Source: Candidatus Latescibacterota bacterium (GTDB lineage: Bacteria; Latescibacterota; UBA2968; UBA8231). From it: DNA of 64,000 nt. The stretch lies in contig CBDCDC010000002.1 of assembly GCA_965215195.1 (NCBI GenBank), positions 1,248,001-1,312,000 of the forward strand, given 5' to 3'. How positions within the stretch are numbered: position 1 is the stretch's first letter; each line of letters starts with the position of its first letter. This document shows positions 1 to 34,322 of the stretch, piece after piece. Both the position numbers and the translations under genes were made by a program. The notes under the pieces were generated by a model. It made no database searches and was not told the DNA's origin. It saw only the letters and a program-made list of their open reading frames with translations.

Positions 1-3
1 GAT

Positions 4-19
4 TGGCACGGAATTTGCA
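4..19 (+). promoter_or_regulatory. sigma-54 (-24/-12) promoter, upstream of RND/ACP/MauE genes
   Basis: TGGCAC-GGAAT-TTGCA, exact match to TGGCAC-N5-TTGC consensus; five further homologous copies in the window. Confidence 0.85.
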
Positions 20-99
20 AAGTGTGAAAGTAGGCCCCAGCCGCTAAGGAGCGGAATTGACGGGCAGCTTTTTCGCCCACTCACAAGAGGAGATCAACC

Positions 100-165
100 A
101 TGACCCTGCACCCCTTAGCCGAGATCAGATACCGTCGGCCCGAGGAATGGTCCCCGTGGGCATAG
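100..165 (+). CDS. putative 21-aa leader uORF MTLHPLAEIRYRRPEEWSPWA
   Basis: AAGAGGAG RBS then ATG; homologous start MTLHPL at 19577. Confidence 0.3.
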   Translation: MTLHPLAEIRYRRPEEWSPWA

Positions 166-235
166 CCTCGTTCGACGCCGCGAAGAAATGCACCATCCAC
201 GGCCTGTGTGAAAACCCCCGGCGGACCGCGTTTAG

Positions 236-376: not shown

Positions 377-1876
377 ATGCGTGCGATACGCTGGATCCTC
401 GACCATCCCGTTGCGGTATTCACCACGGTAGCTACCCTCGGCATACTAGCGGCTGCGAGTTTCGCGGTCATCTCGGTCGAGCTGTCGCCGCCGAGTAATC
501 TGCCCGAGTTGCGCGTCACTGTGCAATGGCCCGGGGCCTCGGCCTTCACCGTAGAATCCGAGGTAACGCAGCCGCTGGAGTCGTTGGTTCAGCAGTTGGA
601 CCACGTCACCAGCATGCGCTCGCAGACCCGGGAAGGCTCCACCGAACTCGTGGTGCAATTCGACGCCAAGGCGAATATCGGCTTGCTCGAAGTAGAACTG
701 AACGAACGAGTTTACCAGCTCTACCAGACCATGTCCGAAGGCGTCTTATGGCCTGTGATCCAGCGCTCGGTGCCCGAGGAATTGGCCGACTTAGCTGGCT
801 TCCTCAGCTACCGCTTGTACGGCGACCGGCGACCGGGCGAGTTGCGCGAGTACGCGGAAACCCGCATCCAAAAGGCCCTGCTCGCAGTGGCTGGCATCAA
901 AGACGTGCAGTTGGAGGGAGGTAAGCCGCTCGAACTGGTGATCGAGATAGACGGGAAAGCCGCGACCAGTGCGGGCCTTTCCAGCGAAGATATAGAGGCG
1001 TTGCAGCAGCAGTTGAGCGGCGGCAAATCGAGCTTGGGAACGCTGTGGGACGCCGGCACCGCGAAAAAGGTGCGCTTTGACGCGAGCTATGACGATATAG
1101 AAGCACTCAAGCGGATGCTCGTCGGCTCGGCCGCGGTGCGCTTGGGACATATTGCGCGGGTCTATTGGGGCGCCCCCGACGACTTTAGCCGCATCCGCAT
1201 CAACGGGAAAAACTCCGTATTGATCACCATAGAGAAGTACCCGGGGATAGACCTGCTCGAAACGTCCGCCGCGGTCAAGGCTGCCATGGCGCGTGCCATG
1301 CGGGACGCGCCGCTGGGCATCGGTTTGGTAAAAGAGCTGGACAAGGGCGAGGACTTGGAGAAGGAATTGGCCAAGATCGGCAAACGCTCCTTTTTCGCGG
1401 TGCTGTTCATTGCCGCCATCGTCGTCTCGACCTACAAGAGGGTGTCGGCGACCTTGCTTATCTGGGGCACCATCCTGCTGGTGCTGGCCTACACCGTCGG
1501 TCTGCTCCACCTCGCGGGTATGACCCTGAACGTGTTGACCTTGGCCGGCTTGACTGTCGGCTACGGCCTGAGTGTGGATAACTCGGTCGTGGTGTACGAC
1601 AGCGTCCAACGCCACCTAACAACGGGCGAGAGCGGCTCGGCCCAGCAGCGCATCCTCGCCGGGGTCGCCGCGGTGCTGAAACCCCTGCTGGCCTCCAACC
1701 TGACGACCATCGGAGCCTTGCTGCCGGTCTTTTTCCTGTCGCAAACCCTGCAACTCTACTTCAAGCCCGTGGCCTTGGCGCTCGGTGCCACGGTGCTCTT
1801 TTCCTTCCTCGTCTCCTGCCTGCTGCTGCCGCCCCTAATGCTGGTGCTAAACAGGCGGGGAGAAAGTGCGGCTTAG
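377..1876 (+). CDS. RND (AcrB/AcrD/AcrF family) efflux permease, N-terminal half
   Basis: N-terminal TM, WPGASAFTVESEVTQPLE porter motif, GLSVDNSVVV, SNLTTIG. Confidence 0.85.
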   Translation: MRAIRWILDHPVAVFTTVATLGILAAASFAVISVELSPPSNLPELRVTVQWPGASAFTVESEVTQPLESLVQQLDHVTSMRSQTREGSTELVVQFDAKANIGLLEVELNERVYQLYQTMSEGVLWPVIQRSVPEELADLAGFLSYRLYGDRRPGELREYAETRIQKALLAVAGIKDVQLEGGKPLELVIEIDGKAATSAGLSSEDIEALQQQLSGGKSSLGTLWDAGTAKKVRFDASYDDIEALKRMLVGSAAVRLGHIARVYWGAPDDFSRIRINGKNSVLITIEKYPGIDLLETSAAVKAAMARAMRDAPLGIGLVKELDKGEDLEKELAKIGKRSFFAVLFIAAIVVSTYKRVSATLLIWGTILLVLAYTVGLLHLAGMTLNVLTLAGLTVGYGLSVDNSVVVYDSVQRHLTTGESGSAQQRILAGVAAVLKPLLASNLTTIGALLPVFFLSQTLQLYFKPVALALGATVLFSFLVSCLLLPPLMLVLNRRGESAA

Positions 1877-3535
1877 ATGTCCCGAACATACATTGCCTTG
1901 CTCGGCTTCTGCTGCAAGCACCGCCGGATTATGCTGGCGGTCTTGGTGTTGCTGTGGGGCCTGCCCGTCTGGCTGCTGCCCGACTCCATCGGCGAGGACG
2001 GCGCAGTGGCCCGCGCGTACGAGGACTGGTGGATGGACCCACAGTTCGACGAGGAAACCAAACCCCTGCTGCTCAAGGTGCTGGGCGGTGCCTCGTATCT
2101 GTTTTTTCAAAAGGTCTATAAGGGCGAAGTCTTTGGCCGAGAAGCCGAGCAGAGCCTACGGATTTCTTTTACCATGCCGAGCAACGTGCCGATCCAAAAG
2201 ATGGAGGAAATATGTTTCGGATTTGAAGCGGCCTTGGCCCCGTACATGGAGCAAATAGAGAAAGTGGCGGTCAACTACTCGCCCAAATCGGCGCTGATGG
2301 AGATCGTCTTGGCCGAGGGTGCCGACCCTCTCGTATTTCCCAAAAAGGTGTACGCGGCCCTAGCCGGACACGCGGCTAATGTCGGCGGGGTGGGGGTTTC
2401 AGTAAGCGGGTTTGGCTTCCAGCATCACCAGTCTCTCTTGAGCGACTTTGCCCAGTTTTCGCTCGCGGCCAAGGGCAGCGACTATCTCAAGCTGCGGGAG
2501 GTAGCCGAACAATTCGCCGACAAACTCGCCCACAACAAGCGCATCCGCGATGTGGATATAGACGCAGTGGCCCGTTACAGCGTTGATGAGCCTTATGAGA
2601 TGATAGGCCGCTTGGACGCCAGCGCGATCAGCGCGTACGGGCTGGACCACAGCCGCGTGGCCGAGGCGTTGAGGCAGCAGACGACCGCAGCGTCGCGGAG
2701 GAGCCTGTGGGTCGCTGGCGAGTTGCAGGACGTGGCCATCAAGTTTCGCGGGGCCGACGTTGCCGCTAGCGACGCGGTGAAGGGGGCGGGTCTCGGCGAC
2801 CACGTGCGGCTCGGCCACCTAATCCAACTCGAAAAAAGCAGGATCCAGCCTGAAATAGCGCGGGAAGACCAAACGTACGTGCGCCGGATAAACCTCAACT
2901 ACTTGGGGTCGCGTGAGCACGGGGAAAAACTCATCGACCTGTTCATCAAGCGCACCAAATTCCCCTATGGTTTCAGCATCGCCCGCCAAGCGTCCTATTG
3001 GTACTTGGAAGAGGACAACAGAAAGGAACTCATGGCCGTTCTGGGCGTGGCCGTGTTGGTCGTATGGATGATCGCCGCCTGCCTCTTTGAGTCTTGGACC
3101 AAGCCCTTTTTGGTGCTGTTAGCGGTTCCCATGGCGCTGATTGGCCTGTTCGATGCGTTCTATTTTTTAGGGGCCAGCTTTGACACTGGCGGCTATATCG
3201 CGGTGCTCTTTTTGGCTGGCATAGCGGTCAACAACGCCTTTCTCATGCTGTACCAGATGGATGAGAAGGCCAAAGCAGGGGCTGGCGACCTTGCGGCCGA
3301 GGTATTCGCGGCCGCGGCCCAGCGCCTCAAGCCGATTGCCATTACCACCCTGACTACGTTGGCCGGGCTCCTGCCCATCGTCTTGTTCGAGGATACCGAG
3401 AGTATATGGTATCCGCTGGCCGTGGGTGTGACCGGCGGCTTGGTCGCTTCGTCGGTTTTGTTGCCGATTTACTTACCTATGCTATACCTGAGCCTGCACC
3501 GGGCGACGGAACGACCCAAGTCATCAGCCGCTTGA
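1877..3535 (+). CDS. RND efflux permease, C-terminal half (in frame after TAG)
   Basis: LFESWTKPFLVLLAVP, GIAVNNA, RLKPIAITTLTT motifs; same frame as upstream half. Confidence 0.85.
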   Translation: MSRTYIALLGFCCKHRRIMLAVLVLLWGLPVWLLPDSIGEDGAVARAYEDWWMDPQFDEETKPLLLKVLGGASYLFFQKVYKGEVFGREAEQSLRISFTMPSNVPIQKMEEICFGFEAALAPYMEQIEKVAVNYSPKSALMEIVLAEGADPLVFPKKVYAALAGHAANVGGVGVSVSGFGFQHHQSLLSDFAQFSLAAKGSDYLKLREVAEQFADKLAHNKRIRDVDIDAVARYSVDEPYEMIGRLDASAISAYGLDHSRVAEALRQQTTAASRRSLWVAGELQDVAIKFRGADVAASDAVKGAGLGDHVRLGHLIQLEKSRIQPEIAREDQTYVRRINLNYLGSREHGEKLIDLFIKRTKFPYGFSIARQASYWYLEEDNRKELMAVLGVAVLVVWMIAACLFESWTKPFLVLLAVPMALIGLFDAFYFLGASFDTGGYIAVLFLAGIAVNNAFLMLYQMDEKAKAGAGDLAAEVFAAAAQRLKPIAITTLTTLAGLLPIVLFEDTESIWYPLAVGVTGGLVASSVLLPIYLPMLYLSLHRATERPKSSAA

Positions 3536-4396
3536 CCGTTTGATTGGGAATGCCCAACCGAGGCACACCGTATGACACATCGCGAATGCTAAGTAGGCCG
3601 AAGTAGTACAGCAGCGACAGGAAGTTCTCGGGCCGGTTTAGCCGGTCCAAGGGAAAGCTGAGTTGGATGTTGCTTTCGGCGGTCTGCTCGCCGGTGAGGT
3701 GGCGCAGCAGGTCGTTGAGTTGGCGGTTGACCGGCAGCAGGTGCCGCAACTTGCCGTAGTCAATGCGTACGTTGGGGTTGAGCAACTCGTCCGGCATGGG
3801 TCGGTTCGGTATGGAAGCCTTTAGATAGTAGAGAACCATGTCGGTGTTGTAGAGAACGCTCTCGGCGTCCTCGGCGAACCGATAGCCGTTGTACCACTCC
3901 TGCATCACTTCTAGCGCGGCTTCTACTTCCTGATTGAACACGCCGTAGTCGCGGTACATCTCCAGCAGGCCCCGCACCTCAGCCTCGGTGAAGCCGAGCA
4001 TGTTGTTGAACTCTGGTTCCAAGCTGATGTTGCGGCCGATGTTGAAGCCGCTGGTGACGTCGTCCATGGTGATCGGCAACACCCCGGTGATGAACAGCCG
4101 CTCGATCCCGCCACCGCTTTGCCCGGCTCCCGCCTTGAGCGTGGCGAAAAAGTTGCGATAGAAGTCGCCGCCGTGGTCGAAGGACTGGTAGGCTTCGGCC
4201 CCGCGATGCGCCAGCACGGTGTTGGCAAAATGGTCGTACTCGTCGAGGGGCTAGCGCCGTTTCAGGTATTTGAGTTCAAGCACGTAGCCGTACCGGATAT
4301 TGGGATACTGGGCAAGGAATGGCTCTAGATACAGATCGGCATACCCCTTGTTCAGTTCGTACTCCGAGTGGAGCAGAAACTGCCCACCATGCTCAC
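3524..4396 (-). pseudogene. scrambled fragments of AAA-ATPase/PD-(D/E)XK nuclease gene
   Basis: 3524-4243 matches the middle of the intact paralogs (14327, 25122); ~4255-4395 matches their C-terminal ELNKGYADLYLEP segment, in out-of-order position. Confidence 0.85.
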
Positions 4397-4669
4397 ATGG
4401 ATCCCGAGATGAAGCTCGAAACACAAGTTAAGCAGGTTATCGTCCAAGCCCTTGAACTGGAGATCGAACCGGAAGAGATCCCGGACGACGAGTTGCTGTT
4501 GGGGGCTGGCATGGGTGCTGATTCGATAGTCATGCTGCAGCTCGTCATGGCCTTGGAAACGCACTTTGCCATTGATGTAGAAGACGAGGAACTGCGGGCG
4601 GAACGGTTTGTGTCGGCGCGATCCATCACCGAATTCGTGCGCGGCAAAATACCGGCGGTAGGGGTTTGA
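4397..4669 (+). CDS. acyl carrier protein (phosphopantetheine-binding)
   Basis: 90 aa acidic protein; GADSIVMLQLVMALETHFAIDV with conserved DS serine. Confidence 0.85.
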   Translation: MDPEMKLETQVKQVIVQALELEIEPEEIPDDELLLGAGMGADSIVMLQLVMALETHFAIDVEDEELRAERFVSARSITEFVRGKIPAVGV

Positions 4670-4695
4670 CTACCGGAGAAAGGGAGTTAGCTCTG

Positions 4696-5142
4696 ATGAA
4701 GCGAGTTGTCGGAAAGGCATTGCTGGTAGTGGCGGTCGGCGTCTCCAGCGGCGCGTTGCATAGCTTGGCAAGAGAAGATGGCCAGAGGCTCGAAAATGGT
4801 GTGCATGTGATTGATCTGGGAGCGGCCAAACGGCTCTTTGATCTAAAGGCGGCTGTTTTCGTGGACGCTCGGTCTTCTTGGCCCTACCAGTTGGGGCATG
4901 TGCCCGGGGCGCTCCATGTCCCGCCGTCGGAGATCTCCGCTGCTTTCGGCGCGGAACTAGCCGACCTGTCCAAAGATACCGTGCTGGTCGTGTACTGTTC
5001 GGGTACGACGTGTAACTTGGGCAGCAAACTGGCGCAAAAGCTCGCCGAGGACATGGATTTCACCCGGATCTACGTCTTCGCTGGCGGTTTTCCCCAATGG
5101 GAGGAAGCGGGTTATCCGGTGGAATCAGAAGGCCCTTTCTAA
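4696..5142 (+). CDS. rhodanese-like domain protein with N-terminal signal/TM
   Basis: FVDARS...GHVPGALHVP, VVYCSGTTC, FAGGFPQWEEAGYPVE; alternative TTG start at 4666. Confidence 0.85.
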   Translation: MKRVVGKALLVVAVGVSSGALHSLAREDGQRLENGVHVIDLGAAKRLFDLKAAVFVDARSSWPYQLGHVPGALHVPPSEISAAFGAELADLSKDTVLVVYCSGTTCNLGSKLAQKLAEDMDFTRIYVFAGGFPQWEEAGYPVESEGPF

Positions 5143-5567
5143 TGGACAGACTCGCACTCAGGCCCTATCAGGCCCTAGCGATTCGCTTGGTGATGGGCGG
5201 TGTCTTTGTTTGGGCAGGGACCGCCAAGCTCGTGCAGATACCGTCTTTCGTCGAGACGGTCGCCGCCTTTGACATTCTTCCGGTAGATTGGGCTGCGCCG
5301 TTCGCGCTGTCGGTTATCTGGATTGAACTGATCGCCGGCGGCCTCCTGCTGTTGGACATTTGGCCACGCAGCAATGCGTTGGTCGTGTTGGGGCTATTGG
5401 TGGTTTTCAGTGCGGCGCTGGGCATCAATATGTACCGCGGCAACGATGTGACGTGCGGTTGTTTTGGTGGAGACGGGGGTTCCTCGCTGGTTTGGACTTT
5501 GTTGCGCGATTTGTTGTTGGCTGGGGGAGCTGCGGTGCTGCTGGTGCGGAAGGAGCAGAGAAATTAA
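5142..5567 (+). CDS. MauE/DoxX family redox membrane protein
   Basis: 4 hydrophobic segments, CGCFG motif, TAATG coupling to rhodanese gene. Confidence 0.85.
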   Translation: MDRLALRPYQALAIRLVMGGVFVWAGTAKLVQIPSFVETVAAFDILPVDWAAPFALSVIWIELIAGGLLLLDIWPRSNALVVLGLLVVFSAALGINMYRGNDVTCGCFGGDGGSSLVWTLLRDLLLAGGAAVLLVRKEQRN

Positions 5568-6882: not shown

Positions 6883-7075
6883 TACGTCCCTTTTGACGCA
6901 CTTGCTCCAAGCTATTGTAAAAACGTGAGATAGAGGGCAAATAGGGAGTTAGGTGCGTCGAAAGGGTGCAATAGAAGCGCGATTCGGCATTTTGTATAAA
7001 ATACCCTAATTTCTTGTAACTCTTTGTCTATCAGTCAGTTACGTCTTTTTAAGTCGGTTTGGCACGGAATGTGCT
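6883..7075 (+). promoter_or_regulatory. sigma-54 promoter 1 with enhancer boxes and IHF-like site
   Basis: TACGTCCCTTTTGACGCA 6883-6900, TGCGTCGAAAGGGTGCA 6954-6970, TATCAGTCAGTTA 7029-7041, TGGCACGGAATGTGCT 7060-7075. Confidence 0.85.
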
Positions 7076-7280
7076 ATTATAGTAGGTGAGCACGAAAGTA
7101 AGCCGTTGTTGGCTTCAGACGCTAAGGCGCAGGGGCCGACGGGCAGGCTTTCCATCCACCCCATAAGAGGAGGGAAAGATGAACCGCTTTTATCAACATC
7201 CGCTCTCGCCCGCTTGGAGAACGGCTCGCTCTCGTGCCGCGTTGGTAGAGCCATCGTCAATGTCGAGAAGGCATGTAGCC

Positions 7281-7454
7281 ATGACCCTGCACAAATCCGT
7301 GATATACGGCCCGGCCATCGAAGCCGCGCAGGCATTTGCCGCTGTCGGCTGCTTTTCCTTCTCGCGCCATGACACGCCTTTGCCAGCACCATTTAGGGCT
7401 ACCCGTCAGGAGGCCCTTTCGCGACGCTCTTGGCGTCACCATTTGGTTCAATAG
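7281..7454 (+). pseudogene. degenerate upstream precursor paralog MTLHKSVIYGPAIEAAQ...
   Basis: N-terminus aligns with the precursor leader; frame broken in cassettes 2 and 4. Confidence 0.45.
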
Positions 7455-7487
7455 AACCTGTCACTTACTACTCAAGGAATTATAGCT

Positions 7488-7628
7488 ATGACCGCTCTGC
7501 ACAAACCCGAACGCGCCACCTACGGCCAAGCCGTCGAGGCCCAAGCGGAATATCGCTTCACCATCTGCTCCAGCGATCCCAAGGCAGCTCTCTGCTGGGA
7601 TGATGGAGACCTCCTGTGCTGCCCGTAA
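7488..7628 (+). CDS. Cys-rich precursor peptide 1 (46 aa) MTALHKPERATYGQAVEAQ-AEYRFTICSSDPKAALCWDDGDLLCCP
   Basis: hand translation; AAGGA RBS; leader shared by four copies. Confidence 0.9.
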   Translation: MTALHKPERATYGQAVEAQAEYRFTICSSDPKAALCWDDGDLLCCP

Positions 7629-7708
7629 GAAGGCCTTGGCGTCCTCACTTGGTTCGATAGAACCTCTCACTTGGGAGGTAGCTGAAAAATCGACCAAGCT
7701 ATGGACGG

Positions 7709-7750
7709 GCGGAGTGGACCAGAGGTCCTATTGACCCCGGTCCACTCCGC
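7709..7750 (+). other. conserved intergenic RNA hairpin (copy 1)
   Basis: GCGGAGTGGACC...GGTCCACTCCGC 12-bp stem; homologs at 11121, 17026, 19041, 27810. Confidence 0.75.
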
Positions 7751-7855
7751 TTGGCTTCAGGCTCAATGATCGTGGGCCTGTAGTCTACTCCTGAGTGGGC
7801 GGCCGAGTCGGTCGCCTGCCCGCTAAATCCCAACCACATACCCAAGGAGGATGTT

Positions 7856-9030
7856 ATGAACAAGCTAAAGCATTTTATCGTGGTAGCCGGCCCTATGGTG
7901 CTGTTGGCTGGGTGCGGTGAGGACCAACTCGAAAACCGGGTGGAGATTACCCCCCGGCGGCTGACTTGGCATTCGACGAGGCAGTCATCAAGGACCGGGA
8001 CATCTACTTCCAAATGCCCGAAGACGTCGCTTTGGGGACGATCAGCTATACATTGGTAGATGCCAAGGGGGACCTCATCGTTGTGGACTCTGTTCAGTGG
8101 ACGATTTTCCAGATCAATGCGGAGGGCCAATACTTGCGGCAGATCGGCATGCGGGGAGGAGCCGAAGGCGAGTACTTTTATGTCCTCAAGATGCTACTGG
8201 CCCCCAATGACGATCTCTATATACACTGCATCGGAGAAAGCGCGAAGTATCTAGTCTTTGCCGGGGACTCATATAAGTTCAAGCGGGAGGTGCCCGACCC
8301 TAACTCCGCGCTCATTGATCATGTTGTGATTACCGAGGGAGGCAATATGTACGCCTCGCAAGTGGACGTCATTGATGGAGGCTCTGCCGGGGTGCAAGAG
8401 GATGGAGCACACGCTCTATTCCGCTTTGACGACCACTTCAATAAGGTCGCTAGCCTGTATCCGGTCGAAGACAAGCGAACAGGACGGACGTTGAACCGCT
8501 ACCACAACACAATTCTCACTCCTAGGACGGGGGGTGGCTTCTACTTCATGTATCCCACCGCCTACGATATCCATCAGTACAGCGAGCAGGGTGAGTTGGA
8601 ACAGACCCTATTTAGTACCTATTGGTCTAAGCACCGAAACGGGATCAATCCCTTGCCCGCCAGCTTGGATCCGCTCGCTTGGACTCCCAAGCACGCGGAG
8701 TGGCTTGCCGAGTACATCTTCCCTGTCCAACTTTTTGAATGTGATCCCGACTTGCTGGTACTCATGCAAGTAAGGAAGGAGGTCGACGGCGAAGTGAAAC
8801 GCTATATGAACCTCCTGTACAAGGACGGCCATTCGGTAGCCGACGGCATTAGAGTCCCCGCAAATCATAGGCTCCTGACGGTTGACGGCCGTGAGTTGTA
8901 TTTCGTGGTAGAGGGCGCGTTCGACGAGGAGACCGGCGAGGTGGGCGATCCGCATGTGGCCGTCTATCGGTTCAATGATCGCGCAGGGGCCGGCAAGTTA
9001 GCGTTCAGCCGCTCGCGGGGCGGCCAGTAG
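7856..9030 (+). pseudogene. beta-propeller (6-bladed/NHL-like) lipoprotein 1, one base short in C-run 7950-7955
   Basis: LAGC lipobox ORF 7856-8059 and body ORF 7966-9030 join if one C is added; GxRGGAEGEY motif shared with paralogs. Confidence 0.8.
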
Positions 9031-9046: not shown

Positions 9047-9682
9047 ATGAATTCGCTAGCCAAAGCACTCCTGCTATTGTCCCTCGGACTCGGCTCGGTC
9101 GCCTTGGCTCTGCACCAAGACAACACCGACAGACGCGACGAGTTGGAGGCCCTTAATGAGCACCTAAAAGATTTAAAGACAGTCCAGTGGAAATACGAGG
9201 TCAACGCCGTCCTGAAGAGTAAACTACACCGCAAACTGATTGAATCGATGGAATTCGGCCGATTCACCAAATTCGACGAGTCGGCCGTTAGGGCCGACAA
9301 GCCGTTTGTCGTCGTCGTATCGACGAGCCGGACATGTGGAGCGTGCCTGTTTGCCCAACTCGACCAGTGGAAGGAGGCTATGACTCAAAGGAATGTCTCT
9401 TACGGCAAGTTGCTGCTGATCGTAGGCGACGCCAACGAGCGCATTAAGCAACAGATTGCCATAAAGCACAAGGTGGGCATCGTGCCCTTCGCCTTCACTT
9501 TCATGGCCGAGCGGGATCTTGAAGAGTTGATTTTCCAGTCGGACGACCGGTCAGCGGTGCCCGTCTCGTTTGTCGTGGACGAAGCCTTCCGTGTCCTCAA
9601 CTGGCACTATAGCGACAAAGGGGACGAAAAAGCTACGGCGCAGTGCATCCAAGACTGGCTGGACCGCTATTTCACCTCTTAA
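9047..9682 (+). CDS. membrane-anchored thioredoxin-fold protein 1 (CGAC)
   Basis: N-terminal hydrophobic helix, VVVVSTSRTCGAC, VPVSFVVD cis-Pro loop. Confidence 0.75.
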   Translation: MNSLAKALLLLSLGLGSVALALHQDNTDRRDELEALNEHLKDLKTVQWKYEVNAVLKSKLHRKLIESMEFGRFTKFDESAVRADKPFVVVVSTSRTCGACLFAQLDQWKEAMTQRNVSYGKLLLIVGDANERIKQQIAIKHKVGIVPFAFTFMAERDLEELIFQSDDRSAVPVSFVVDEAFRVLNWHYSDKGDEKATAQCIQDWLDRYFTS

Positions 9683-16093: not shown

Positions 16094-16195
16094 GGCGACT
16101 CCTAAGACGAATGAACGAGACTGAGCGTAACGATTGAGCAAAACAAGCGCAACGTACGCACGATTGGCCACATCGGCGATTCCCTTTTAACGCAC

Positions 16196-24420: not shown

Positions 24421-24482
24421 TACTACACGACGGAGCCACCATTCAAGATGGAATCCAACGGATGTGCCGGAGGTTATAGACC

Positions 24483-24770: not shown

Positions 24771-24777
24771 CCGTCTA

Positions 24778-24903
24778 GGCCGCGTCATACGGGGCGGCGA
24801 CTTTATGGCTCCTGTCATATACCTGCGGTCAGCGAGCCGCAGGGCTAGTGAACCCGACGAACGTGATTATAGCACTGGTGTGCGCCTTTTGAAGATGCGT
24901 TGA
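24778..24903 (+). pseudogene. FGE-sulfatase gene 3' remnant
   Basis: RVIRGGDFMAPVIY...VRLLKMR* homologous to the end of 12512-13498. Confidence 0.75.
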
Positions 24904-24969
24904 GCTTTGTGCTCGTTACAAGGATGAGGAGGAGGCATTCGGCCGCTAGTAGGGAAGGAGATCATTGCC

Positions 24970-25098
24970 ATGAATGCCGCTAAGGTGCCCGTTTCGTTTG
25001 TCGTGGACGACGCCTACTGGCACTATAGCGACAAAGGAGACGAAGAGGCGACGGAGCAGTGTATCCAAGACTGGCTGAACCGGTACTTCACTTCGTAA
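24970..25098 (+). pseudogene. thioredoxin-fold gene with large in-frame deletions (42 aa)
   Basis: MNAAK joined to VPVSFVVDDAYWHYSDKGDEEATEQCIQDWLNRYFTS. Confidence 0.8.
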
Positions 25099-25121
25099 AC
25101 GGCGATTCCGCAACCCGCAGA

Positions 25122-26984: not shown

Positions 26985-27177
26985 TACGTCCCTTTTGACG
27001 CACTTGATCTAACCTATTGTAAAGACGTGAGATAGGCGCAAAGTGGAGCATTAGGTGCGTCGAAAGGGTGCAATCACAGCGCGATTCATCATCTTGTATG
27101 AAATACTCCGATTTCTTGTAACTATTTGTCTATCAGTCAGTTATGTCTTTTTAAGTCGGTTTGGCACGGAATGTGCT
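26985..27177 (+). promoter_or_regulatory. sigma-54 promoter 4 with enhancer boxes
   Basis: boxes 26985-27002 and 27056-27072; TATCAGTCAGTTA 27131-27143; TGGCACGGAATGTGCT 27162-27177. Confidence 0.85.
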
Positions 27178-27590: not shown

Positions 27591-27722
27591 ATGATCGCTC
27601 TGCACAAGCCCGAACGCGCCACCTACGGCCAAGCCGTCGAGGCCCAGTATGAATACCAGAACATGGTATGCGACGCATATGATGCTAGGTGCTGGGATCC
27701 GGGGCACAGAAGGTGCTGCTAG
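27591..27722 (+). CDS. Cys-rich precursor peptide 4 (43 aa) MIALHKPERATYGQAVEAQ-YEYQNMVCDAYDARCWDPGHRRCC
   Basis: AAGGAG RBS; C-terminal part of track ORF 27534-27722. Confidence 0.9.
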   Translation: MIALHKPERATYGQAVEAQYEYQNMVCDAYDARCWDPGHRRCC

Positions 27723-27933: not shown

Positions 27934-29049
27934 ATGAACAAGCGGATACATTTTATCGCGGGCGTCGGCACTATGGCGCTATGCGCCGGGTGCAGCGACG
28001 TGCCAGAAGGCCGGATAGAGATTACCCCGCCAGCGGCCGATCTTGCCTTCGACGAGACGTTCGTCAAGGACCGGGACATTCATCTCAACATGCCCGAAGG
28101 CGTCGTTTTGGGCAGAATCGGCCACATGGTAGTCGATTCCAAAGGCAATCTCATCGTTAGGGACCCTATTCAGGATATAGTTTTCCAGACCGATGCTGAG
28201 GGCCATTACTTGCGGCAGATCGGGGCACGAGGGGGAGCAGAGGGCGAGTACTTCATGGTCCTCAAGATACTGCTGGCCCCAAACGACGATCTCTATATCC
28301 ACAGTGCAGGGGAAGGCATGAAGTATCTAGTCTTTTCCGGCGACTCATATACGTTCAAGCGGGAGGCTCCAGACCCTAACCCTGCGTACGTTGACCATGT
28401 CATATTCACCGCAGGAGGCAACATATACGCCTCGGAAGTGGACAGCGAATACGCCCTGTCCCGCCTCGACGACCACTTCAATAAGGTGGACCGCATGTAC
28501 CCTGTCCAAGACACGCGGACAGGACAGGCGCTGAACCGCTTCCACAACACCGTCCTTACTCCCAAGAGGGGAGGTGGCTTCTACTTTATGTATCCGACCT
28601 CCTACGAGATTTACCAATACAGCGAGCAGGGCGAGTTGGAACAGACCTTGTTTAGCGACTACCGCTCCAAGCATCGGGACGGGATCAAACCCTTTCCCCC
28701 CAACTTGAACCCGTACGATTGGAATCCCAAAATTGAAGCGTGGTTCGCCGAGCACATCGTCCGCAGCCAGCTTTTTGAATGCGATCCCGACTTGCTGATC
28801 CTCAAGCAATACAGGCGGGAGGTGGGCGGCGAGTGGAAATACTATCTAAACATCCTAGACAAGGACGGCCATTCGATCGCCGATGGGATCAGCGTACCCG
28901 CCAAGCACACACCGCTGACGGTTGACGGCCGTGAGTTGTATTTCGAGGTAGAGGGCGCGTTCGACGAGGAGACCGGCAAGGTAGGCGATCCGTATGTAGC
29001 TGTCTATCGGCTCGCCAATGATCGCAAAGTAGCCTTTAGCCGCTTGTAG
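27934..29049 (+). CDS. beta-propeller lipoprotein 4
   Basis: GGAGG RBS, CAGC lipobox-like motif, paralog. Confidence 0.85.
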   Translation: MNKRIHFIAGVGTMALCAGCSDVPEGRIEITPPAADLAFDETFVKDRDIHLNMPEGVVLGRIGHMVVDSKGNLIVRDPIQDIVFQTDAEGHYLRQIGARGGAEGEYFMVLKILLAPNDDLYIHSAGEGMKYLVFSGDSYTFKREAPDPNPAYVDHVIFTAGGNIYASEVDSEYALSRLDDHFNKVDRMYPVQDTRTGQALNRFHNTVLTPKRGGGFYFMYPTSYEIYQYSEQGELEQTLFSDYRSKHRDGIKPFPPNLNPYDWNPKIEAWFAEHIVRSQLFECDPDLLILKQYRREVGGEWKYYLNILDKDGHSIADGISVPAKHTPLTVDGRELYFEVEGAFDEETGKVGDPYVAVYRLANDRKVAFSRL

Positions 29050-29227: not shown

Positions 29228-30817
29228 GTGCGGCAAGTACATGCCCCAATCACAGGCATAACCGCGATCTGGGCGTTTTTTCTTGTTATTGGTTGCAGTG
29301 CGCCCCACCGCGACGGCCCTTCCTACGGCGGCCAAGTGCGGATCGGGACACCGGGGGGCATGGAGCCGCTCAATCCGCTCATTTCCTCCCGCACCGTGAG
29401 CACGGAGGTATTGGACCTGCTCTTTGAACGCCTGTTCGCGGAATCGCCTGACGGTCAACTTGCCCCGGCGTTGGCCATAGCTTGGCCATTCAGCCCCCGC
29501 CTGAAGTTTTGGGACATCTTACTGCGGTCGGATGCCCAGTTCCACGATGGTCGGCCCGTAACGGCTGAGGACGTGGTCTTTACGCTGCAATTGATGAGAA
29601 AGCAGCAAAACGGGGAGAATTTGCTCTTTGAGCGGGTTGAAGCACTCAGCGACGACATTGTGCGGCTGCACTATGCCGCCCCACTCCAGTGGTCGGCTCT
29701 AGTACACTTGCGGTTGCACATTTTGCCCAAGCATCTCGTCGAACCGCAGTTAGCGGCTGGCTATGGGCTGGACGAGTTGCCGTTCAATCGGCATCCCATT
29801 GGGGCGGGGCCGTTCCGCTTTGCCGATTGGGTGGGCGAGGCTCACTTGAGAATGGTGGCCTTTGAGGAGTATCACGGTGGGCGTCCATACATAGATACAG
29901 TGGAAGTGCGCGGCGATTACCCGGACTCGCGGTACGCGTGGGCCGCGTTTATGCGCGGCGAAAGCGATGTGGTTACGTCCGCGTCATCCGACGATTTGAA
30001 AAGTATCGCCGACAACGCGGCCTTCAACGTGCTCAAAGGGGTAGGGTCGTCCTATATGGCGCTGAACTTAAACTGTCGGCCCGAGTCGGTGCTGACCGAC
30101 CGGCGCGTGCGGGAGGCACTTCATCATGCGATTGATCGCCGAGCGATATGGCGTCTTCTCAGTGGGGAAGCAAAGGAAGATTCGATCTTTATTGCCGGGC
30201 CTTTTCCGCCCGGCTCGATCTATAGCGATCCGCAGGTGGCTGCGCCGATCAAAGACCAGCGGCGCACCCGGGCCATACTGCAAGCGGCCGGCTGGGTCGA
30301 TACAGACGGGGATGGGCTGCGCGAGCGGGACGGCGAGGCGTTGGAATTGACCTTGGTCATGGTCAAAGAAATGCCGCATCGGCACGACATAGCGGCCCAG
30401 TTGCGCAAGGATCTGGAAGAAGTGGGGATTCACCTGCTTATGCAGACCGAGCCTTTACAGACGCTTGCTTCAGTGGGGTCGCGGTTCGATATGGTATTGA
30501 GGGAAGGGTACAGTGACCTCGATCCCGATATAACCGTATCTGAATGGCATTCGCGGAATGCCCGCAATGGGTCGGGCTATGTCAATGCCGAAGTGGATCA
30601 ATTGATCGAAGCCGGTCGATCGGCCTACGACGAGCACGCGCACATCGCCATCTACCGGCGCATCCATCGCCATCTGCTAGCCGATCATCCCACAATTTTC
30701 ATCTGTCGAGAGCCGGTGATGTACGCAGTGCGGCAGCCGTTGCGGGGGGTGGAGTCGAGCCTGCGCTTAGGCGTCTTCCGCAGTTTGCCCGATTGGCATT
30801 GGGATCGGGGGCCGTAG
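29228..30817 (+). CDS. family 5 (OppA/DppA-like) substrate-binding lipoprotein, orphan
   Basis: VIGC lipobox, LNPL, FHDGRPVTAEDVVFT, PIGAGPF, VREALHHAIDR. Confidence 0.9.
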   Translation: MRQVHAPITGITAIWAFFLVIGCSAPHRDGPSYGGQVRIGTPGGMEPLNPLISSRTVSTEVLDLLFERLFAESPDGQLAPALAIAWPFSPRLKFWDILLRSDAQFHDGRPVTAEDVVFTLQLMRKQQNGENLLFERVEALSDDIVRLHYAAPLQWSALVHLRLHILPKHLVEPQLAAGYGLDELPFNRHPIGAGPFRFADWVGEAHLRMVAFEEYHGGRPYIDTVEVRGDYPDSRYAWAAFMRGESDVVTSASSDDLKSIADNAAFNVLKGVGSSYMALNLNCRPESVLTDRRVREALHHAIDRRAIWRLLSGEAKEDSIFIAGPFPPGSIYSDPQVAAPIKDQRRTRAILQAAGWVDTDGDGLRERDGEALELTLVMVKEMPHRHDIAAQLRKDLEEVGIHLLMQTEPLQTLASVGSRFDMVLREGYSDLDPDITVSEWHSRNARNGSGYVNAEVDQLIEAGRSAYDEHAHIAIYRRIHRHLLADHPTIFICREPVMYAVRQPLRGVESSLRLGVFRSLPDWHWDRGP

Positions 30818-30820
30818 GGC

Positions 30821-32935
30821 ATGATACGCCTCCGCAACATGCAGCGCCTCTGGGTGCGGCTGCTGGGCAATCACCTAATCGTCGGGCTGGTGCCCGTGCT
30901 GTTGGCGGCTGGTGTGCTCGTGTACACGGCGCGCAGTGCGCTAGAGCAGGCCGTGCTCGACAGCCACCAGCAGGTGGCCCGGCGGGCGGCCAAGGAGATT
31001 CACCATTTCCTCGCACAGCCCATCGCCAGCCTCAAGGTGCTGGCCCAAAGCATGAACGTGGTCCGCGACCCGTGGCGGCGGCAGAGCCTGTTGAGTCAGG
31101 TGGGGTTGGAACTGAGTGCGGTGGCCGAACTTTGCTTTGTGGATACGAGCGGCGCGATCCAAGCCACCAACATGCTCGATGTCCACGCTCCGCTCCAGCG
31201 CGGTGGACGGCTGCCGCCCGATTATCTGCCTCACGCCCGGGTACTGTGGGCGCAGGTGAAGCGGGAGGAATTCTACGCTTCCGAAGTGGTCCAGCACGAG
31301 GGGCAACCGAGCCTGTTTATCGGCTTGGCCGTGAAAGAGGCCGATAAAGTAGTCGGTGCTTTGATCGCCCGTTTTGCGCTGTACGAAATTTGGCAGCAGG
31401 TGGACCAGATTCGGCTGGGAGATACCGGGCGCGGGGTGCTTTTGGACGCGAGGGGCCGCTATATTGCCTTTCCCGCCCGCCAAGACATCTATCTCGACGC
31501 CCCACATCCCGAATTTGTACCGCACATAAGCGGGAATGGCACTCGGCAATGGCGCGACATCGAGGGACGCGAGTGGGTGGCGGGCTTTGCGTACATTGCG
31601 GACTGGGGCTGGACCGTGGTGGTGCAGCAGGAGGCGCAAGAGGCGTTTGGGCTGGTGGCCATGATGCAGTACCGCGCCAACTGGATCATCGTCGCCTCGG
31701 TGGCCGGTGCCATTTTGCTGGGCTTGGTGCTGTTGCGGTCCATCACTCGGCCCATCAATCGGCTGATGCACACCGTGCGGGCCGTGCAGGCCGGCGAGGC
31801 GTTTGCCCTAAAGTTGCCGGCTATAAAGGACGAATTGTGGGAGTTGGGGCAGGCGTTTACCGAAATGAACCAAGCCCTCGAAGCCCGCAAGGCGGAACTG
31901 GAGGCCGAACTCAACTTCAGTGACCGGCTGATCGAGGACAATCCCCTCGCCATCGCGGTGGTGGACCAACAGCAGCGAACCGTGCGGGTGAACAAGGCTT
32001 GGCACCAGCTCTTTGGCGAAGGCGGGGCCGGCCCTTGGGAACACACGCCCGCGGGCCAGCAGCTTTGGGACTGGATCAAAAGCAACCCCAAGACGCGGGA
32101 GGCCGACAACTTGGAGATCGAGTCCCCGCAGGGCGGCACCCGGTTTTGGAACCTGAAGGTCTTAGACTTGGAGGGGGCCTTGCCCGGGCATCTGTTGTTA
32201 GTGGTGGACGACCAGACTCAGCGCAAACTTTTGGAACTTCACTACGTTCAGGCCGAGAAGCTGGCCGCCCTCGGCGAGATGGCCGCGGGCGTGGCGCACG
32301 AGATCAAGAATCCGCTGGCGATCATCCGGCACGCCTACGAGCTGCTGGCGCAGATTGTCCCGCAGGAAGTGGAGGGGCGCGACCAAGCGCTCAGGCCCCT
32401 CGGCGCGGCTATCGGCCGGATCGATGAACGAGTGGTCAATCTGCTCGACTTTGCCCGACCCGCCCAGCAGGTGCAGGAGTTGGTTGACCCAACGGGCATC
32501 CTCCGGCAACTGGTCGATCTCGAACAGAAACACGCCGAGCACCTTGGCATCGCCATTGAGGTCCGTCTGCACGCGGTGCCGCCGGTGTGGGTGAATCGGG
32601 ACATGCTCAAGGATGTTTTTCTCAATTTGATTAGCAACGCGTTTGCGGCCATGCCCGATGGCGGCAAGTTGCTGATTTCGGCCGCGCAGCGGGACGATTG
32701 GGTGGTGGTCGGGGTCGGCGATACCGGGGCGGGCATTTCCCCAAAGCACCTCCGGCAGATATTTGAGCCGTTTTACTCGACCAAGCCGCCGGGGCAGGGC
32801 ACGGGGCTGGGATTGGCCATCGTCCACCGGCAAATACAGGAGATCGGCGGCCGGATTGAGGTCGAAAGCGCGCCGGACCAAGGCACGCGCTTTTCGCTAT
32901 ATCTACCTACGGCAAACCCAGAGAGGAACGATTGA
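30821..32935 (+). CDS. sensor histidine kinase (Cache-like, HAMP, PAS-like, HisKA/HATPase)
   Basis: two TMs, AHEIKNPL, NLISNA, DTGAG, GTGLGL. Confidence 0.92.
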   Translation: MIRLRNMQRLWVRLLGNHLIVGLVPVLLAAGVLVYTARSALEQAVLDSHQQVARRAAKEIHHFLAQPIASLKVLAQSMNVVRDPWRRQSLLSQVGLELSAVAELCFVDTSGAIQATNMLDVHAPLQRGGRLPPDYLPHARVLWAQVKREEFYASEVVQHEGQPSLFIGLAVKEADKVVGALIARFALYEIWQQVDQIRLGDTGRGVLLDARGRYIAFPARQDIYLDAPHPEFVPHISGNGTRQWRDIEGREWVAGFAYIADWGWTVVVQQEAQEAFGLVAMMQYRANWIIVASVAGAILLGLVLLRSITRPINRLMHTVRAVQAGEAFALKLPAIKDELWELGQAFTEMNQALEARKAELEAELNFSDRLIEDNPLAIAVVDQQQRTVRVNKAWHQLFGEGGAGPWEHTPAGQQLWDWIKSNPKTREADNLEIESPQGGTRFWNLKVLDLEGALPGHLLLVVDDQTQRKLLELHYVQAEKLAALGEMAAGVAHEIKNPLAIIRHAYELLAQIVPQEVEGRDQALRPLGAAIGRIDERVVNLLDFARPAQQVQELVDPTGILRQLVDLEQKHAEHLGIAIEVRLHAVPPVWVNRDMLKDVFLNLISNAFAAMPDGGKLLISAAQRDDWVVVGVGDTGAGISPKHLRQIFEPFYSTKPPGQGTGLGLAIVHRQIQEIGGRIEVESAPDQGTRFSLYLPTANPERND

Positions 32936-32936
32936 C

Positions 32937-34322
32937 ATGGGCAAACGCAAGGGCAGGATACTCATGGTAGACGACGAGCAGGACTTGTTGGATTTGTCGG
33001 CCATTCTGTTGCGCCGCGAGGGCTTGGCGGTTTCTACCTGCGCCGGTGGCAAAGCGGCCCTAAGCCTGCTGAATAACGAGGAGTTCGATCTCATCCTCCT
33101 CGATTTGAGGATGCCGGGCTTGGACGGCCTCGGCTTCTTGGAGCTCTTCAAAAAGCAGCAACGCCGCGAAGAAGTCGTCATTCTGACGGCCTACGCCGAT
33201 GTGGAAAGTGCGGTGAAAGCCGTCAAGTTGGGGGCCTATGGCTACCTGTCCAAACCCTTTGACATCGGGGAAGTGCTGGCGCATCTCGACCGCATCTTGG
33301 AGTTGCAGGCTCTGCGCTCTGAAAACGAGGCCCTGCGGCGGGAGCAGCGGGGCGAGTTCGGCAACTTGGTGGGCCAAAGCGAGGGCATGAGACAGCTCTA
33401 CCAGCTCATCGAGGATGTGGCGCCCACGCCGGTCACCGTACTGATTCGGGGCGAGAGCGGGACCGGCAAGGAACTGGTGGCCAACGCCATTCACAACACC
33501 AGCGACCGCGCCGGCAAGCCTTTTGTGCGCTGCAATTGCGCGGCCTTGTCGCCGGGCGTGCTGGAGAGCGAACTCTTCGGCCACGTCAAGGGGGCCTTTA
33601 CCGGAGCGGTGCGCGACCGCGCCGGCCGGTTTGCCGAGGCCGACGGCGGCTCCTTGTTCCTCGACGAGATCGGCGATCTCGAAACCAATATGCAGATTCG
33701 GCTCTTGCGCGTGATACAGGAAGGGGAGTTTGAGCCGGTGGGATCGACCCAGACCCAGCAAGTGGATGTGCGCTTGATCACCGCTACGCACCAAGATCTC
33801 GAAGCCCGCATTGAGGAGGGCACTTTCCGCGAAGATCTCTACTACCGCATCAACGCCCTGACCATTGAAATACCGCCGCTGCGGGAGCGCATGAGCGACC
33901 TGCCGCTCTTGTGCGCCTTCTTCGTCAACCGCTACAACCGGGTGCTCCACAAGCGCGTTGAGGGGTTTACCAGCGAGGCCCTGCAATGCTTGGAGGAATA
34001 CAACTGGCCCGGCAATGTGCGCGAACTGGAAAACGCGATCATGCGGGCGATGACCGTGGCCAAAGGCGACGACGTAGAGATCAAACACCTGCCCGCCTCC
34101 CTTGCTAGTGGGATGGCACCGGCCTATCGCGGCGAGGAGGCGTACTACGATATTCCGCAGCCGCTCTTCCACGAGGCGCGCGAGCAGTTCGAGCGCCTCT
34201 TTCTCCGCCGGGCTCTAGAGCGGGCCAACGGCAACGTAAGCCGGACCGCGGCCGCCATTCAATTGAGCCGGAGGAATCTACAGCGGAAGATCAAGCAATA
34301 CGAACTAGACGTTCGCGGATGA
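32937..34322 (+). CDS. NtrC-family sigma-54-dependent response regulator
   Basis: receiver domain, GESGTGKE, GAFTGA, WPGNVREL, Fis-type HTH. Confidence 0.95.
   Translation: MGKRKGRILMVDDEQDLLDLSAILLRREGLAVSTCAGGKAALSLLNNEEFDLILLDLRMPGLDGLGFLELFKKQQRREEVVILTAYADVESAVKAVKLGAYGYLSKPFDIGEVLAHLDRILELQALRSENEALRREQRGEFGNLVGQSEGMRQLYQLIEDVAPTPVTVLIRGESGTGKELVANAIHNTSDRAGKPFVRCNCAALSPGVLESELFGHVKGAFTGAVRDRAGRFAEADGGSLFLDEIGDLETNMQIRLLRVIQEGEFEPVGSTQTQQVDVRLITATHQDLEARIEEGTFREDLYYRINALTIEIPPLRERMSDLPLLCAFFVNRYNRVLHKRVEGFTSEALQCLEEYNWPGNVRELENAIMRAMTVAKGDDVEIKHLPASLASGMAPAYRGEEAYYDIPQPLFHEAREQFERLFLRRALERANGNVSRTAAAIQLSRRNLQRKIKQYELDVRG

Follow-up and report, generated by a model that had tools for sequence, protein, structure and literature searches.

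The Paenibacillus SacP23 cluster combines TIGR04066, the acyl carrier protein (ACP)-related TIGR04069, the radical SAM protein TIGR04068, a subtilisin and a precursor peptide (PMC10731318). TIGR04066 and TIGR04069 were found in genome-mining tables only, and their roles are uncharacterised (PMC10731318). In the Qhp system, QhpE cleaves the leader of QhpC in the cytoplasm before QhpC is exported by an ATP-binding cassette (ABC) transporter, as outlined in PMC7876137. Here, we describe a locus related to both in a Candidatus Latescibacterota bacterium (GCA_965215195.1), whose genome comprises two contigs and 6.13 Mb. The window, i.e. the whole stretch of DNA analysed, covers 64,000 nt of contig CBDCDC010000002.1 (G000:C2:1248001-1312000). 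The locus is best read as a relative of the predicted TIGR04066-type systems for peptide maturation that lacks radical SAM, has its protease fused to DUF1611 and is under sigma-54 control. On balance, we lean towards a sigma-54 regulon that makes and exports four paralogous peptides, which would be leader-cleaved, disulfide-bonded, probably ACP-dependently acylated and most likely antagonistic. Literature searches, which did not cover supplementary cluster tables, returned no account of the enzyme set or the peptides, in agreement with the initial annotation of this DNA that had named the system as a candidate for an undescribed one.

Gene content, homologies, folds, shared promoters, the leader/core pattern and synteny in other genomes were computed. 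Like the Cys-rich peptide maturation system of Clostridia and Paenibacillus (TIGR04066, TIGR04069, TIGR04068 or CcpM, and TIGR04065 or CLI_3235), the locus has Cys-rich precursors, a DUF1611-type homologue, an ACP-type protein, an ABC transporter and a protease of the subtilisin type. Unlike that system, it has no radical SAM gene, its protease is fused to DUF1611 and its precursors are unrelated to TIGR04065. Furthermore, it adds a BtrH-fold enzyme, MauE, rhodanese, TlpA-type oxidoreductases, propeller lipoproteins, RND transport and sigma-54 control. The C-terminal half of the fusion matches TIGR04066 over profile positions 2-360 of 361 (131.2 bits vs. a cut-off of 200, E 4.4e-38). Judged by sequence, it is a homologue of TIGR04066 and by NCBI's cut-off not a member. 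TIGR04069 reached 17.2 bits on the ACP of the window (cut-off 70), and generic ACP models reached 38-41 bits. Neither the locus nor the 20 kb upstream of it contains a radical SAM gene, and the best TIGR04068 match of the genome (91 bits vs. 500) is located ~800 kb away. The relation to TIGR0406x systems proposed in the initial annotation is partly borne out, by full-length TIGR04066 homology, whereas every TIGR0406x model either missed or stayed below its cut-off. Its statement on the absence of radical SAM genes holds for the locus, and no protein of the genome exceeds the TIGR04068 cut-off.

For the N-terminal half of the fusion, an S8 domain, the best family is QhpE (NF049966). As in Qhp biogenesis, a cytoplasmic subtilisin-like protease occurs together with a small Cys-rich peptide and an ABC exporter. 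In contrast to Qhp, the score of 142.4 bits is below the QhpE cut-off of 165, genes for QhpD, QhpG, QhpA and QhpB are absent, and the peptide cores are hypervariable without a conserved Trp. A third resemblance concerns the carrier-protein-dependent amide synthases of the BtrH type, BtrH/BtrI (butirosin), CcbD (lincosamides), CtaG (closthioamide) and AziU2/U3 (azinomycin), with which one enzyme of the locus has in common the fold, an ACP in the same operon and, within the aligned region, a conserved His-Asp pair. It differs from BtrH-type synthases in the lack of a Pfam BtrH_N match, in an apparent Ser nucleophile and in its presumed acceptor, a ribosomal peptide instead of a sugar or diamine. 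With the blp and pln class II bacteriocin loci of Gram-positive bacteria, which have one three-component regulator, the locus shares several peptide genes with their own accessory genes, one exporter and one sensor-regulator, but it has neither a double-glycine leader nor a C39 domain, is under sigma-54/NtrC control and has a diderm host, RND pumps and extra enzymes. Conotoxin superfamilies of cone snails, too, combine a conserved pre/pro region with a hypervariable mature peptide and a fixed Cys framework. This is an evolutionary analogy only, as conotoxin genes are animal genes related neither in sequence nor in machinery.

The locus is one predicted sigma-54 regulon of ~42 kb with seven promoters. 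Six exact copies of TGGCACGGAATNTGC are located on the plus strand of the window (P1 to P6, Table 1), and none of 100 shuffled sequences contained a match to any. All six read TGGCAC-N5-nTGC with GG at -24 and GC at -12 in the correct spacing, the genome encodes rpoN (426 bits, above cut-off), and an enhancer-binding protein is encoded adjacently. Taken alone, a loose sigma-54 consensus that allows one mismatch shows no enrichment (9 vs. 6.15 expected; at least 9 in 14 of 100 shuffles). What carries the promoter argument is therefore that the copies repeat one element. In the whole genome, TGGCACGGAATNTGC occurs ten times: seven copies belong to the locus, among them one at C2:1240634, and three to an unrelated locus. 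As this seventh promoter lies 7.4 kb before base 1, the system begins outside the window. Conservation extends over ~150 nt upstream of the promoter in 14 of 15 copies, which come from four genomes. This stretch comprises a GGTGCGTCGAAAGGGTGCA element ~100 nt before the promoter, a putative activator site, and an AT-rich part in between that might be a bending site.

The repeated promoters had been recognised in the initial annotation, which had also placed two further copies before the shared genes. P1 indeed precedes the RND genes and P5 the redoxin set, but none precedes the ACP gene. The latter is located downstream of the RND genes, past a remnant of an AAA gene, and its operon has lost its own promoter together with half of the adjoining AAA gene; the orthologous locus L014 retains both. 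The genes for a solute-binding protein (SBP), a kinase and an NtrC activator noted at the 3' end were substantiated by Pfam matches. Upstream of the window, the seventh promoter is followed by genes for a membrane-fusion protein (MFP) of 397 aa and a full-length RND pump of 1048 aa (C2:1240634-1246883, L001:12634-18883). The same stretch also holds a minus-strand AAA-ATPase_like/PDDEXK_9 gene (621 aa). The three promoters outside the locus (C2:2461253, 2464791 and 2470129, minus strand) were rejected as members of the system, because their genes are unrelated to any query. Two of the genes behind them share the same first 50 residues. These promoters may represent another regulon of a related activator.

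The products of the four precursor genes have a near-invariant leader, M-[TI]-ALHKPERATY-[GD]-QAVEAQ, after which come x-E-[YF], some residues and the pattern C...C...CC. Their cores are divergent but keep the Cys pattern (C-C-CC); they have no conserved Trp, and the leader does not end with GG. Precursor 1 matched no NCBIfam family (E 0.01), and a Pfam search with all four precursors (E 10) yielded no meaningful match. The same leader was found on ten further peptides from other contigs of the protein collection. At the DNA level, the block comprising leader and 5' untranslated region (UTR) was detected in 16 copies in 9 of the 31 genomes of the genus, with one to four copies each; one copy is truncated where its contig ends and another (L104) is degenerate. 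Leader-bearing peptides elsewhere sit in the same gene context, a point on which, as stated beforehand, the initial proposal could have failed. Core types are discrete and recur between genomes: cores 3 and 4 have close relatives elsewhere, and core 1 is unchanged in a second genome, in which the leader differs at two residues. This diversity looks old and maintained rather than a result of random decay. Judged by the conserved leader, the kept Cys pattern and the recurrence in other genomes, the precursor open reading frames (ORFs) are real genes. Three other precursor families, whose cores contain 4-6 Cys, adjoin paralogous systems. A MAFFT alignment of the leaders of all four families revealed the common plan M..L.K[PK], ~10 residues, [AE]-[YF]. 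On this basis, we place the presumable end of the leader at the conserved aromatic residue. Mature peptides in the window would then comprise ~21-24 residues.

Each precursor gene belongs to a cassette in which the promoter is followed by a conserved 5'UTR of ~410 nt, the ORF of 43-46 aa, a strongly folding stretch and the gene for a DUF5128 lipoprotein, whose lipobox is of the LAGC type. Cassettes 1-3 are closed by a gene for a membrane-anchored oxidoreductase of 211-213 aa, and cassette 4 is without one. This corresponds to the architecture described in the initial annotation (four 4-Cys precursors, each with hairpin, propeller lipoprotein and usually a thioredoxin-fold gene): DUF5128 scores exceed the cut-off, the 147 nt 3' of each precursor gene have fold z-scores of -3.0 to -5.2, and the oxidoreductase gene is found in three of four cassettes and as a remnant at 24984-25114. 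The mean nucleotide identity among the four cassettes amounts to 87% in the UTR, 95% in the leader (first 57 nt), 40% in the core, 48% in the spacer and 71% in the propeller gene. A ribosome-binding site, AAGGAG, is located 7-9 nt before the precursor ATG.

Since the UTR copies differ by frame-breaking indels, the UTR can be regarded as non-coding. Two ORFs within UTRs, of 91 aa (7179-7454) and 100 aa (57-359), were rejected as genes because their frames break between copies. A leader-like pseudo-ORF, M-[TSP]-LHK..Y..A.EA.Q, is located at 7281-7454 and at the same place in seven other UTR copies, intact in some and frame-broken in others. The UTRs behind P1 and P5 (20-186 and 19499-19665) are 84% identical, and both begin with a ribosome-binding site and ATGACCCTGCAC. 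An Rfam search of positions 1-36000 (E <= 1) returned one chance-level match, P34 sRNA (22 bits vs. 44), and the conserved 5'UTR is thus not covered by any known RNA family. RNAalifold on eight UTR copies yielded a covariation term of +1.55 with compensatory changes in 9 of 120 pairs, which does not support a conserved overall structure. A short hairpin, GGTTC-NATA-GAACC, flanks the precursor gene on both sides, just before its ribosome-binding site and just after its stop codon (7446-7461 and 7649-7664 in cassette 1, with equivalents in cassettes 2-4). The long stem GAGTGGACC..GGTCCACTC has one compensated change in cassette 4 and lacks a U-tract, and a scan for intrinsic terminators after precursor 1 yielded no match in cassette 1. 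This hairpin is more likely to be a processing, stabilising or attenuating element than a terminator.

One enzyme of the conserved set is the S8-DUF1611 fusion, which has no signal peptide. Among nine relatives with 55-92% identity, Asp36, His75 and Ser219 as well as the P-loop GTSSQQGKFT are invariant. DUF1611 matched the N-acetyltransferase DgcN weakly (29 bits vs. a cut-off of 480). In a complex prediction, the fusion and precursor 1 obtained a score of 0.45, and the best of three controls obtained 0.02; the runs agreed in at least 55% of the contacts, and the partner had a predicted local distance difference test (pLDDT) value of at least 38. Of 80 solved complexes, 58 attained the mark used, as did 2 of 110 mismatched pairs; these counts apply only roughly here since custom alignments were used. 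At scores of up to 0.60 it was reached by only 7 of the 80 solved complexes and by both passing mismatches. The prediction lends weak support to binding of precursor 1 by the fusion. The ABC exporter encoded before the fusion yielded no C39 peptidase match; its ABC_membrane domain begins at residue 23. In the ACP, the phosphopantetheine serine in the D/N-S motif is kept, as it is in the aligned ACPs of related loci. Its true start is probably ~27-31 codons inside the ORF.

For the BtrH-like protein, the label given in the initial annotation found no backing in Pfam, but the fold agrees. Its AlphaFold2 (AF2) model (pLDDT 78, predicted template modelling score 0.76) matched AziU2/U3, CtaG and CcbD in Foldseek with E-values of 8e-8 to 2e-5 and TM values of 0.44-0.55. 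The PDB title of one of the matched CcbD entries names a PCP domain as partner in a complex. A sequence-based search of the PDB with the family profile yielded nothing meaningful (best E 0.28). In hhalign, the family matched the BtrH_N+DUF4872 family of the paralogous loci over 219 columns (probability 72%, E 3.4e-5). Ser24, His126 and Asp134 are near-invariant. Ser24 seems to occupy the position where relatives have the nucleophilic Cys, in an N-terminal region that hhalign did not align. In two orthologous loci, L014 and L015, the BtrH-like gene is only 32% identical to that of the window, and the flanking shared genes are 85-95% identical. This component has been swapped.

The thiol-disulfide machinery named in the initial annotation is abundant: MauE, rhodanese, redoxin and the cassette oxidoreductases. 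The 211-aa oxidoreductase has an invariant C97-G-x-C100 and an invariant P172, i.e. the CxxC motif and cis-Pro loop of a thioredoxin fold. The top Foldseek matches of its model are ResA, DsbE and TlpA-like proteins (E ~1e-5). The 211-213 aa oxidoreductases have no Pfam match, and only 14 relatives of the 211-aa protein were found among 1.84 billion representatives. The propeller gene of cassette 1 is one base short in a C6 run (7940-7960) compared to its orthologue in L012, so that the lipoprotein signal peptide is split off. The frameshifted sequence is present without gaps in contigs of the runs X1 and X2, both from one study and possibly the source of the assembly, and X5 from another study. 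As contigs of three runs show the same sequence, an assembly error is unlikely.

Of 41 related genomes, 28 encode the fusion (E <= 1e-60), frequently more than once. A scan of one genome per species resulted in 112 confirmed places, from which 78 distinct loci were retained. They derive mostly from Latescibacterota, some from Gemmatimonadota, one from KSB1 and one from the myxobacterium Minicystis rosea (34% identity). In every one of the 78 loci, protease and DUF1611 are fused. Profile searches with the window proteins found the ACP in 68, the ABC exporter in 59, the window-type BtrH-like protein in 27, redoxin in 19, RND in 18, rhodanese in 16 and MauE in nine. In addition, 16 further loci have a Pfam-positive BtrH_N+DUF4872 gene; proteins of paralogous loci exceed the cut-off with 49 and 33 bits. 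Among the 71 loci of sufficient extent, 47 have an ACP gene that starts at most ~700 nt past the fusion. Other recurrent neighbours are Rce1-like CPBP proteases, HlyD, AraC-type response regulators, DUF5128 propellers, TPR proteins, GNAT acetyltransferases and a GT28 glycosyltransferase; ketosynthase and adenylation genes are not among the recurrent neighbours of the 78 loci. The radical SAM motif CxxxCxxC was present in 4 of 1156 neighbouring genes (L058:2072-2953, L037:1796-3403, L040:2275-3882 and L020:7317-8762). In the KSB1 locus L058, this gene directly precedes the fusion gene and ends where the latter starts. Only in the orthologous subtype are there sigma-54 promoters, an SBP-kinase-NtrC module, the 211-aa oxidoreductase and the precursor family of the window. 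Within this subtype, the SBP gene is located beside kinase and activator in every locus examined, some precursors are without propeller and many propellers without precursor. Between genomes with differing peptides, the SBP is 79-84% identical; for the fusion, the value is 91-92%.

A pathway can be drawn up for the regulon, all steps of which we infer from knowledge of the QhpE family, the amide-synthase fold matches, the protease-DUF1611 fusion and its pairing with the ACP. Phosphorylated NtrC would bind the conserved site ~100 nt before each promoter and turn on all operons. From each cassette, a transcript would arise whose long 5'UTR is conserved and which has a stable hairpin past the precursor gene. 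In the cytoplasm, the S8 domain of the fusion would remove the leader, probably after the conserved E-[YF] ~23 residues in. The DUF1611 P-loop domain, the ACP and the BtrH/CtaG/CcbD-fold enzyme could form a carrier-protein-dependent amide-forming module that would attach an acyl or aminoacyl group to a peptide amine. Afterwards, the ABC exporter would transfer the peptide to the periplasm, where MauE, rhodanese, redoxin and the TlpA-like oxidoreductases of the cassettes may set the two disulfides in the C-C-CC core. MFP/RND pumps would expel the product across the outer membrane, and the propeller lipoproteins might be peptide-specific partners for self-protection or handling. The products would most likely act against competitors. 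Beyond that, we tentatively suggest that S8-DUF1611, ACP and BtrH-fold enzyme might define a new radical-SAM-independent class of RiPPs (peptides synthesised ribosomally and modified post-translationally). In this class, which would extend through Latescibacterota, Gemmatimonadota and KSB1, leader removal would be coupled to carrier-dependent (amino)acylation and yield conotoxin-like, disulfide-knotted lipo- or extended peptides of discrete types.

Several points weigh against the proposed pathway and its products. The BtrH-like protein has no Pfam match (BtrH_N or DUF4872) even at E 10 and apparently Ser in place of the catalytic Cys, which leaves its activity uncertain. For DUF1611, the role is a guess based on the P-loop and the weak DgcN match. 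Furthermore, the chemistry of the trio of S8-DUF1611, ACP and BtrH-fold enzyme, which recurs in at least 78 loci from uncultured phyla, is a predicted one, as is that of the Firmicute TIGR04066 systems. No gene for an outer-membrane channel showed up in the locus. As a rule, TlpA/ResA-type proteins are reductants, a habit that would fit proofreading or isomerisation better than oxidation. The cassette oxidoreductases may proofread disulfides or even disarm incoming peptide. Similarity of propellers and similarity of cores are weakly correlated (Spearman 0.37, 55 non-independent pairs), and there are counter-examples: one pair has similar cores with dissimilar propellers and another the reverse. 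Strict peptide-propeller pairing is therefore only a possibility. Parts of the locus may be decaying, since one propeller gene is frameshifted and several remnants exist. Finally, the 22 sequencing runs listed as carrying the sequence include no RNA run.

The rival explanations differ in what they make of the peptides. If these were secreted pheromones, sensed by the solute-binding lipoprotein and the dCache kinase and fed back via NtrC, their diversity would correspond to pherotypes. The constant position of a peptide-type SBP without permease genes beside kinase and activator would fit, as would one promoter type common to all operons, and autoinduction is common in peptide systems. We nevertheless regard this as unlikely, because a single sensor set would have to serve four very different cores, and the SBP, though less conserved between genomes than the fusion, varies only moderately and does not diversify alongside the peptides. 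Four types per genome, a presence in 9 of 31 genus genomes, decaying copies and debris of insertion sequences suit antagonism loci better. Both roles can coexist, and one antagonistic product could double as inducer. About equally improbable is that the peptides are plain disulfide-bonded, bacteriocin-like products which undergo leader removal and oxidation only, with ACP, DUF1611 and the BtrH-like protein making a separate small molecule or lipid. No sign of a peptide modification was found, the ACP and BtrH-like genes of the window belong to another operon than the fusion, and the BtrH-like gene can be swapped. Against this stand the fusion of the presumed protease to DUF1611 in every locus, the frequency of the ACP and its short distance to the fusion across the loci, and the absence of other biosynthetic genes such as those for ketosynthases or adenylation among the recurrent neighbours.

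The large subunits of quinohemoprotein amine and methylamine dehydrogenases are propellers. By analogy, each peptide could be a cross-linked small subunit or tight partner of the adjoining propeller, and no product would be secreted. This idea draws on the QhpE-like S8 domain, on MauE, on the joint occurrence of peptide, ABC exporter and propeller, and on the cleavage of QhpC by QhpE ahead of ABC export in the Qhp system, as outlined in PMC7876137. It is, however, quite improbable, as the cores are hypervariable, without a conserved Trp that could become a quinone cofactor, and haem, radical SAM and QhpG-type genes are missing. In addition, cassette 1 combines a frameshifted propeller gene with an intact peptide gene that recurs identically in another genome, precursors and propellers also occur without each other, and the regulon includes RND and MFP export genes. 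Least credible, to the point that we hardly reckon with it, is that the small ORFs are no genes and the repeats are duplicated intergenic DNA before lipoprotein genes. In its favour, the ~410 nt before them are equally repeated and clearly non-coding. But the ORF is open in all 16 copies from 9 genomes except the degenerate one in L104, it is preceded by AAGGAG in the appropriate distance, its leader is kept at the protein level, the varying core retains the Cys pattern, and unrelated precursor families of the same plan are located beside paralogous enzyme sets.

The Firmicute cousin TIGR04066/TIGR04069 has been listed in databases as 'peptide maturation system' for years without an assigned reaction. 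The locus is a compact version free of radical SAM with four natural substrates of presumably ~21-24 residues, which would make the reaction of DUF1611 and carrier directly testable. It would also give an initial look at competition or signalling by peptides in Latescibacterota, and small disulfide-rich scaffolds could be drawn from it.

Table 1. Coordinates of promoters, genes, RNA elements and remnants in the window.
Feature	Position	Strand	Basis
Sigma-54 promoter P1 (TGGCACGGAATTTGC), before split RND genes	4..18	+	Motif
Sigma-54 promoter P2, cassette 1	7060..7074	+	Motif
Sigma-54 promoter P3, cassette 2	10458..10472	+	Motif
Sigma-54 promoter P4, cassette 3	16373..16387	+	Motif
Sigma-54 promoter P5, before redoxin/ABC/fusion	19483..19497	+	Motif
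Sigma-54 promoter P6, cassette 4	27162..27176	+	Motif
Precursor 1, 46 aa, 4 Cys	7488..7628	+	Identical core in another genome
Precursor 2, 46 aa, 4 Cys	10890..11030	+	ORF
Precursor 3, 46 aa, 4 Cys	16798..16938	+	ORF
Precursor 4, 43 aa, 4 Cys	27591..27722	+	ORF
Conserved 5'UTR of ~410 nt, cassette 1	7075..7487	+	Frame-breaking indels among copies; leader-like pseudo-ORF inside
Hairpin region 3' of precursor 1: GGTTC..GAACC and long GAGTGGACC..GGTCCACTC stem	7629..7775	+	Fold z-score -4.8
DUF5128 six-bladed propeller lipoprotein, cassette 1, frameshifted near 7950	7856..9030	+	ORF/homology
DUF5128 propeller lipoprotein, cassette 2, lipobox LAGC	11277..12386	+	Pfam DUF5128 30.9 bits vs. cut-off 22.9
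DUF5128 propeller lipoprotein, cassette 3	17100..18281	+	Pfam DUF5128 34.9 bits
DUF5128 propeller lipoprotein, cassette 4, no oxidoreductase gene after it	27934..29049	+	Pfam DUF5128 36 bits
Membrane-anchored TlpA/ResA-like oxidoreductase, CGAC motif, cassette 1	9047..9682	+	Fold, CGxC
TlpA/ResA-like oxidoreductase, cassette 2	13671..14306	+	77% identical to 9047-9682
TlpA/ResA-like oxidoreductase, cassette 3	18317..18958	+	Family alignment
RND (AcrB-family) transporter split in two ORFs, 377-1876 and 1877-3535	377..3535	+	Pfam ACR_tran 241 and 150 bits
Acyl carrier protein	4319..4669	+	Pfam PP-binding 29.6 bits vs. cut-off 20.8
Membrane-anchored rhodanese-domain protein	4666..5142	+	Pfam Rhodanese 58 bits
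MauE/DoxX-family membrane protein	5097..5567	+	Pfam MauE 102 bits vs. cut-off 27
BtrH/CtaG/CcbD-fold amide-synthase-like protein, 352 aa	5566..6624	+	Fold; no Pfam match
Membrane-anchored redoxin, CQPC motif	19708..20424	+	Pfam Redoxin 31 bits
ABC exporter, fused transmembrane and ATPase parts, 576 aa	20456..22186	+	Pfam ABC_membrane 150 bits, ABC_tran 114 bits
S8 serine protease-DUF1611 fusion, cytoplasmic, 655 aa	22173..24140	+	Pfam S8, DUF1611_N, DUF1611
Family-5 (peptide/nickel/opine) solute-binding lipoprotein, no permease genes nearby	29228..30817	+	Pfam SBP_bac_5 196 bits
Sensor histidine kinase: dCache_1, HAMP, PAS, HisKA, HATPase_c	30821..32935	+	Pfam domains
NtrC-type sigma-54 activator: REC, Sigma54_activat, HTH_8	32937..34322	+	Sigma54_activat 238 bits
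Truncated AAA-ATPase_like/PDDEXK_9 copy	3477..4217	-	83-84% nt identity to 14878-15597 and 25670-26386
AAA-ATPase_like and PDDEXK_9 protein, diverging from P4	14327..16171	-	Pfam 158 and 61 bits
AAA-ATPase_like and PDDEXK_9 protein, diverging from P6	25122..26882	-	86% identical to 14327-16171
Secreted FGE-sulfatase-fold protein	12512..13498	+	Pfam FGE-sulfatase 147 bits
IS1-family transposase fragment, before P3	9841..10299	+	NCBIfam transpos_IS1 33 bits vs. cut-off 100
Remnants: MauE 3' end 24176-24421, FGE fragment 24781-24921, oxidoreductase tail 24984-25114	24176..25114	+	blastn within the window

The gene list of the initial annotation was correct for the shared genes, but the minus-strand AAA/PD-(D/E)XK genes, the FGE-like gene, the IS1 fragment, the remnants and the frameshift in the first propeller gene had escaped it. 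In a tblastn search of the genome, the AAA-ATPase_like/PDDEXK_9 protein had nine matches, four of them in the locus with 79-100% and four elsewhere with ~65% identity. The truncated copy is covered by residues 192-436 only. Genes of this type are also located between operons in orthologous loci. Downstream of the activator gene follow genes for an AhpC/TSA-Redoxin protein (34343-34978, minus strand), a DUF6029 protein (34813-36396) and a third protein (36399-36962), the C-terminus of which presumably resembles a type IX secretion sorting domain. No evidence ties the genes at 34343-36962 to the peptide system. The best NCBIfam match of the FGE-like protein is PvdO (92 bits), far below the cut-off of 500. 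Two other genomes of the genus (L108-L110) display alternating propeller and FGE-like genes in runs of up to three pairs, without precursors. The IS1 fragment is multi-copy in the X5 sample, as the contig depth there is ~100-fold above that of its flanks.

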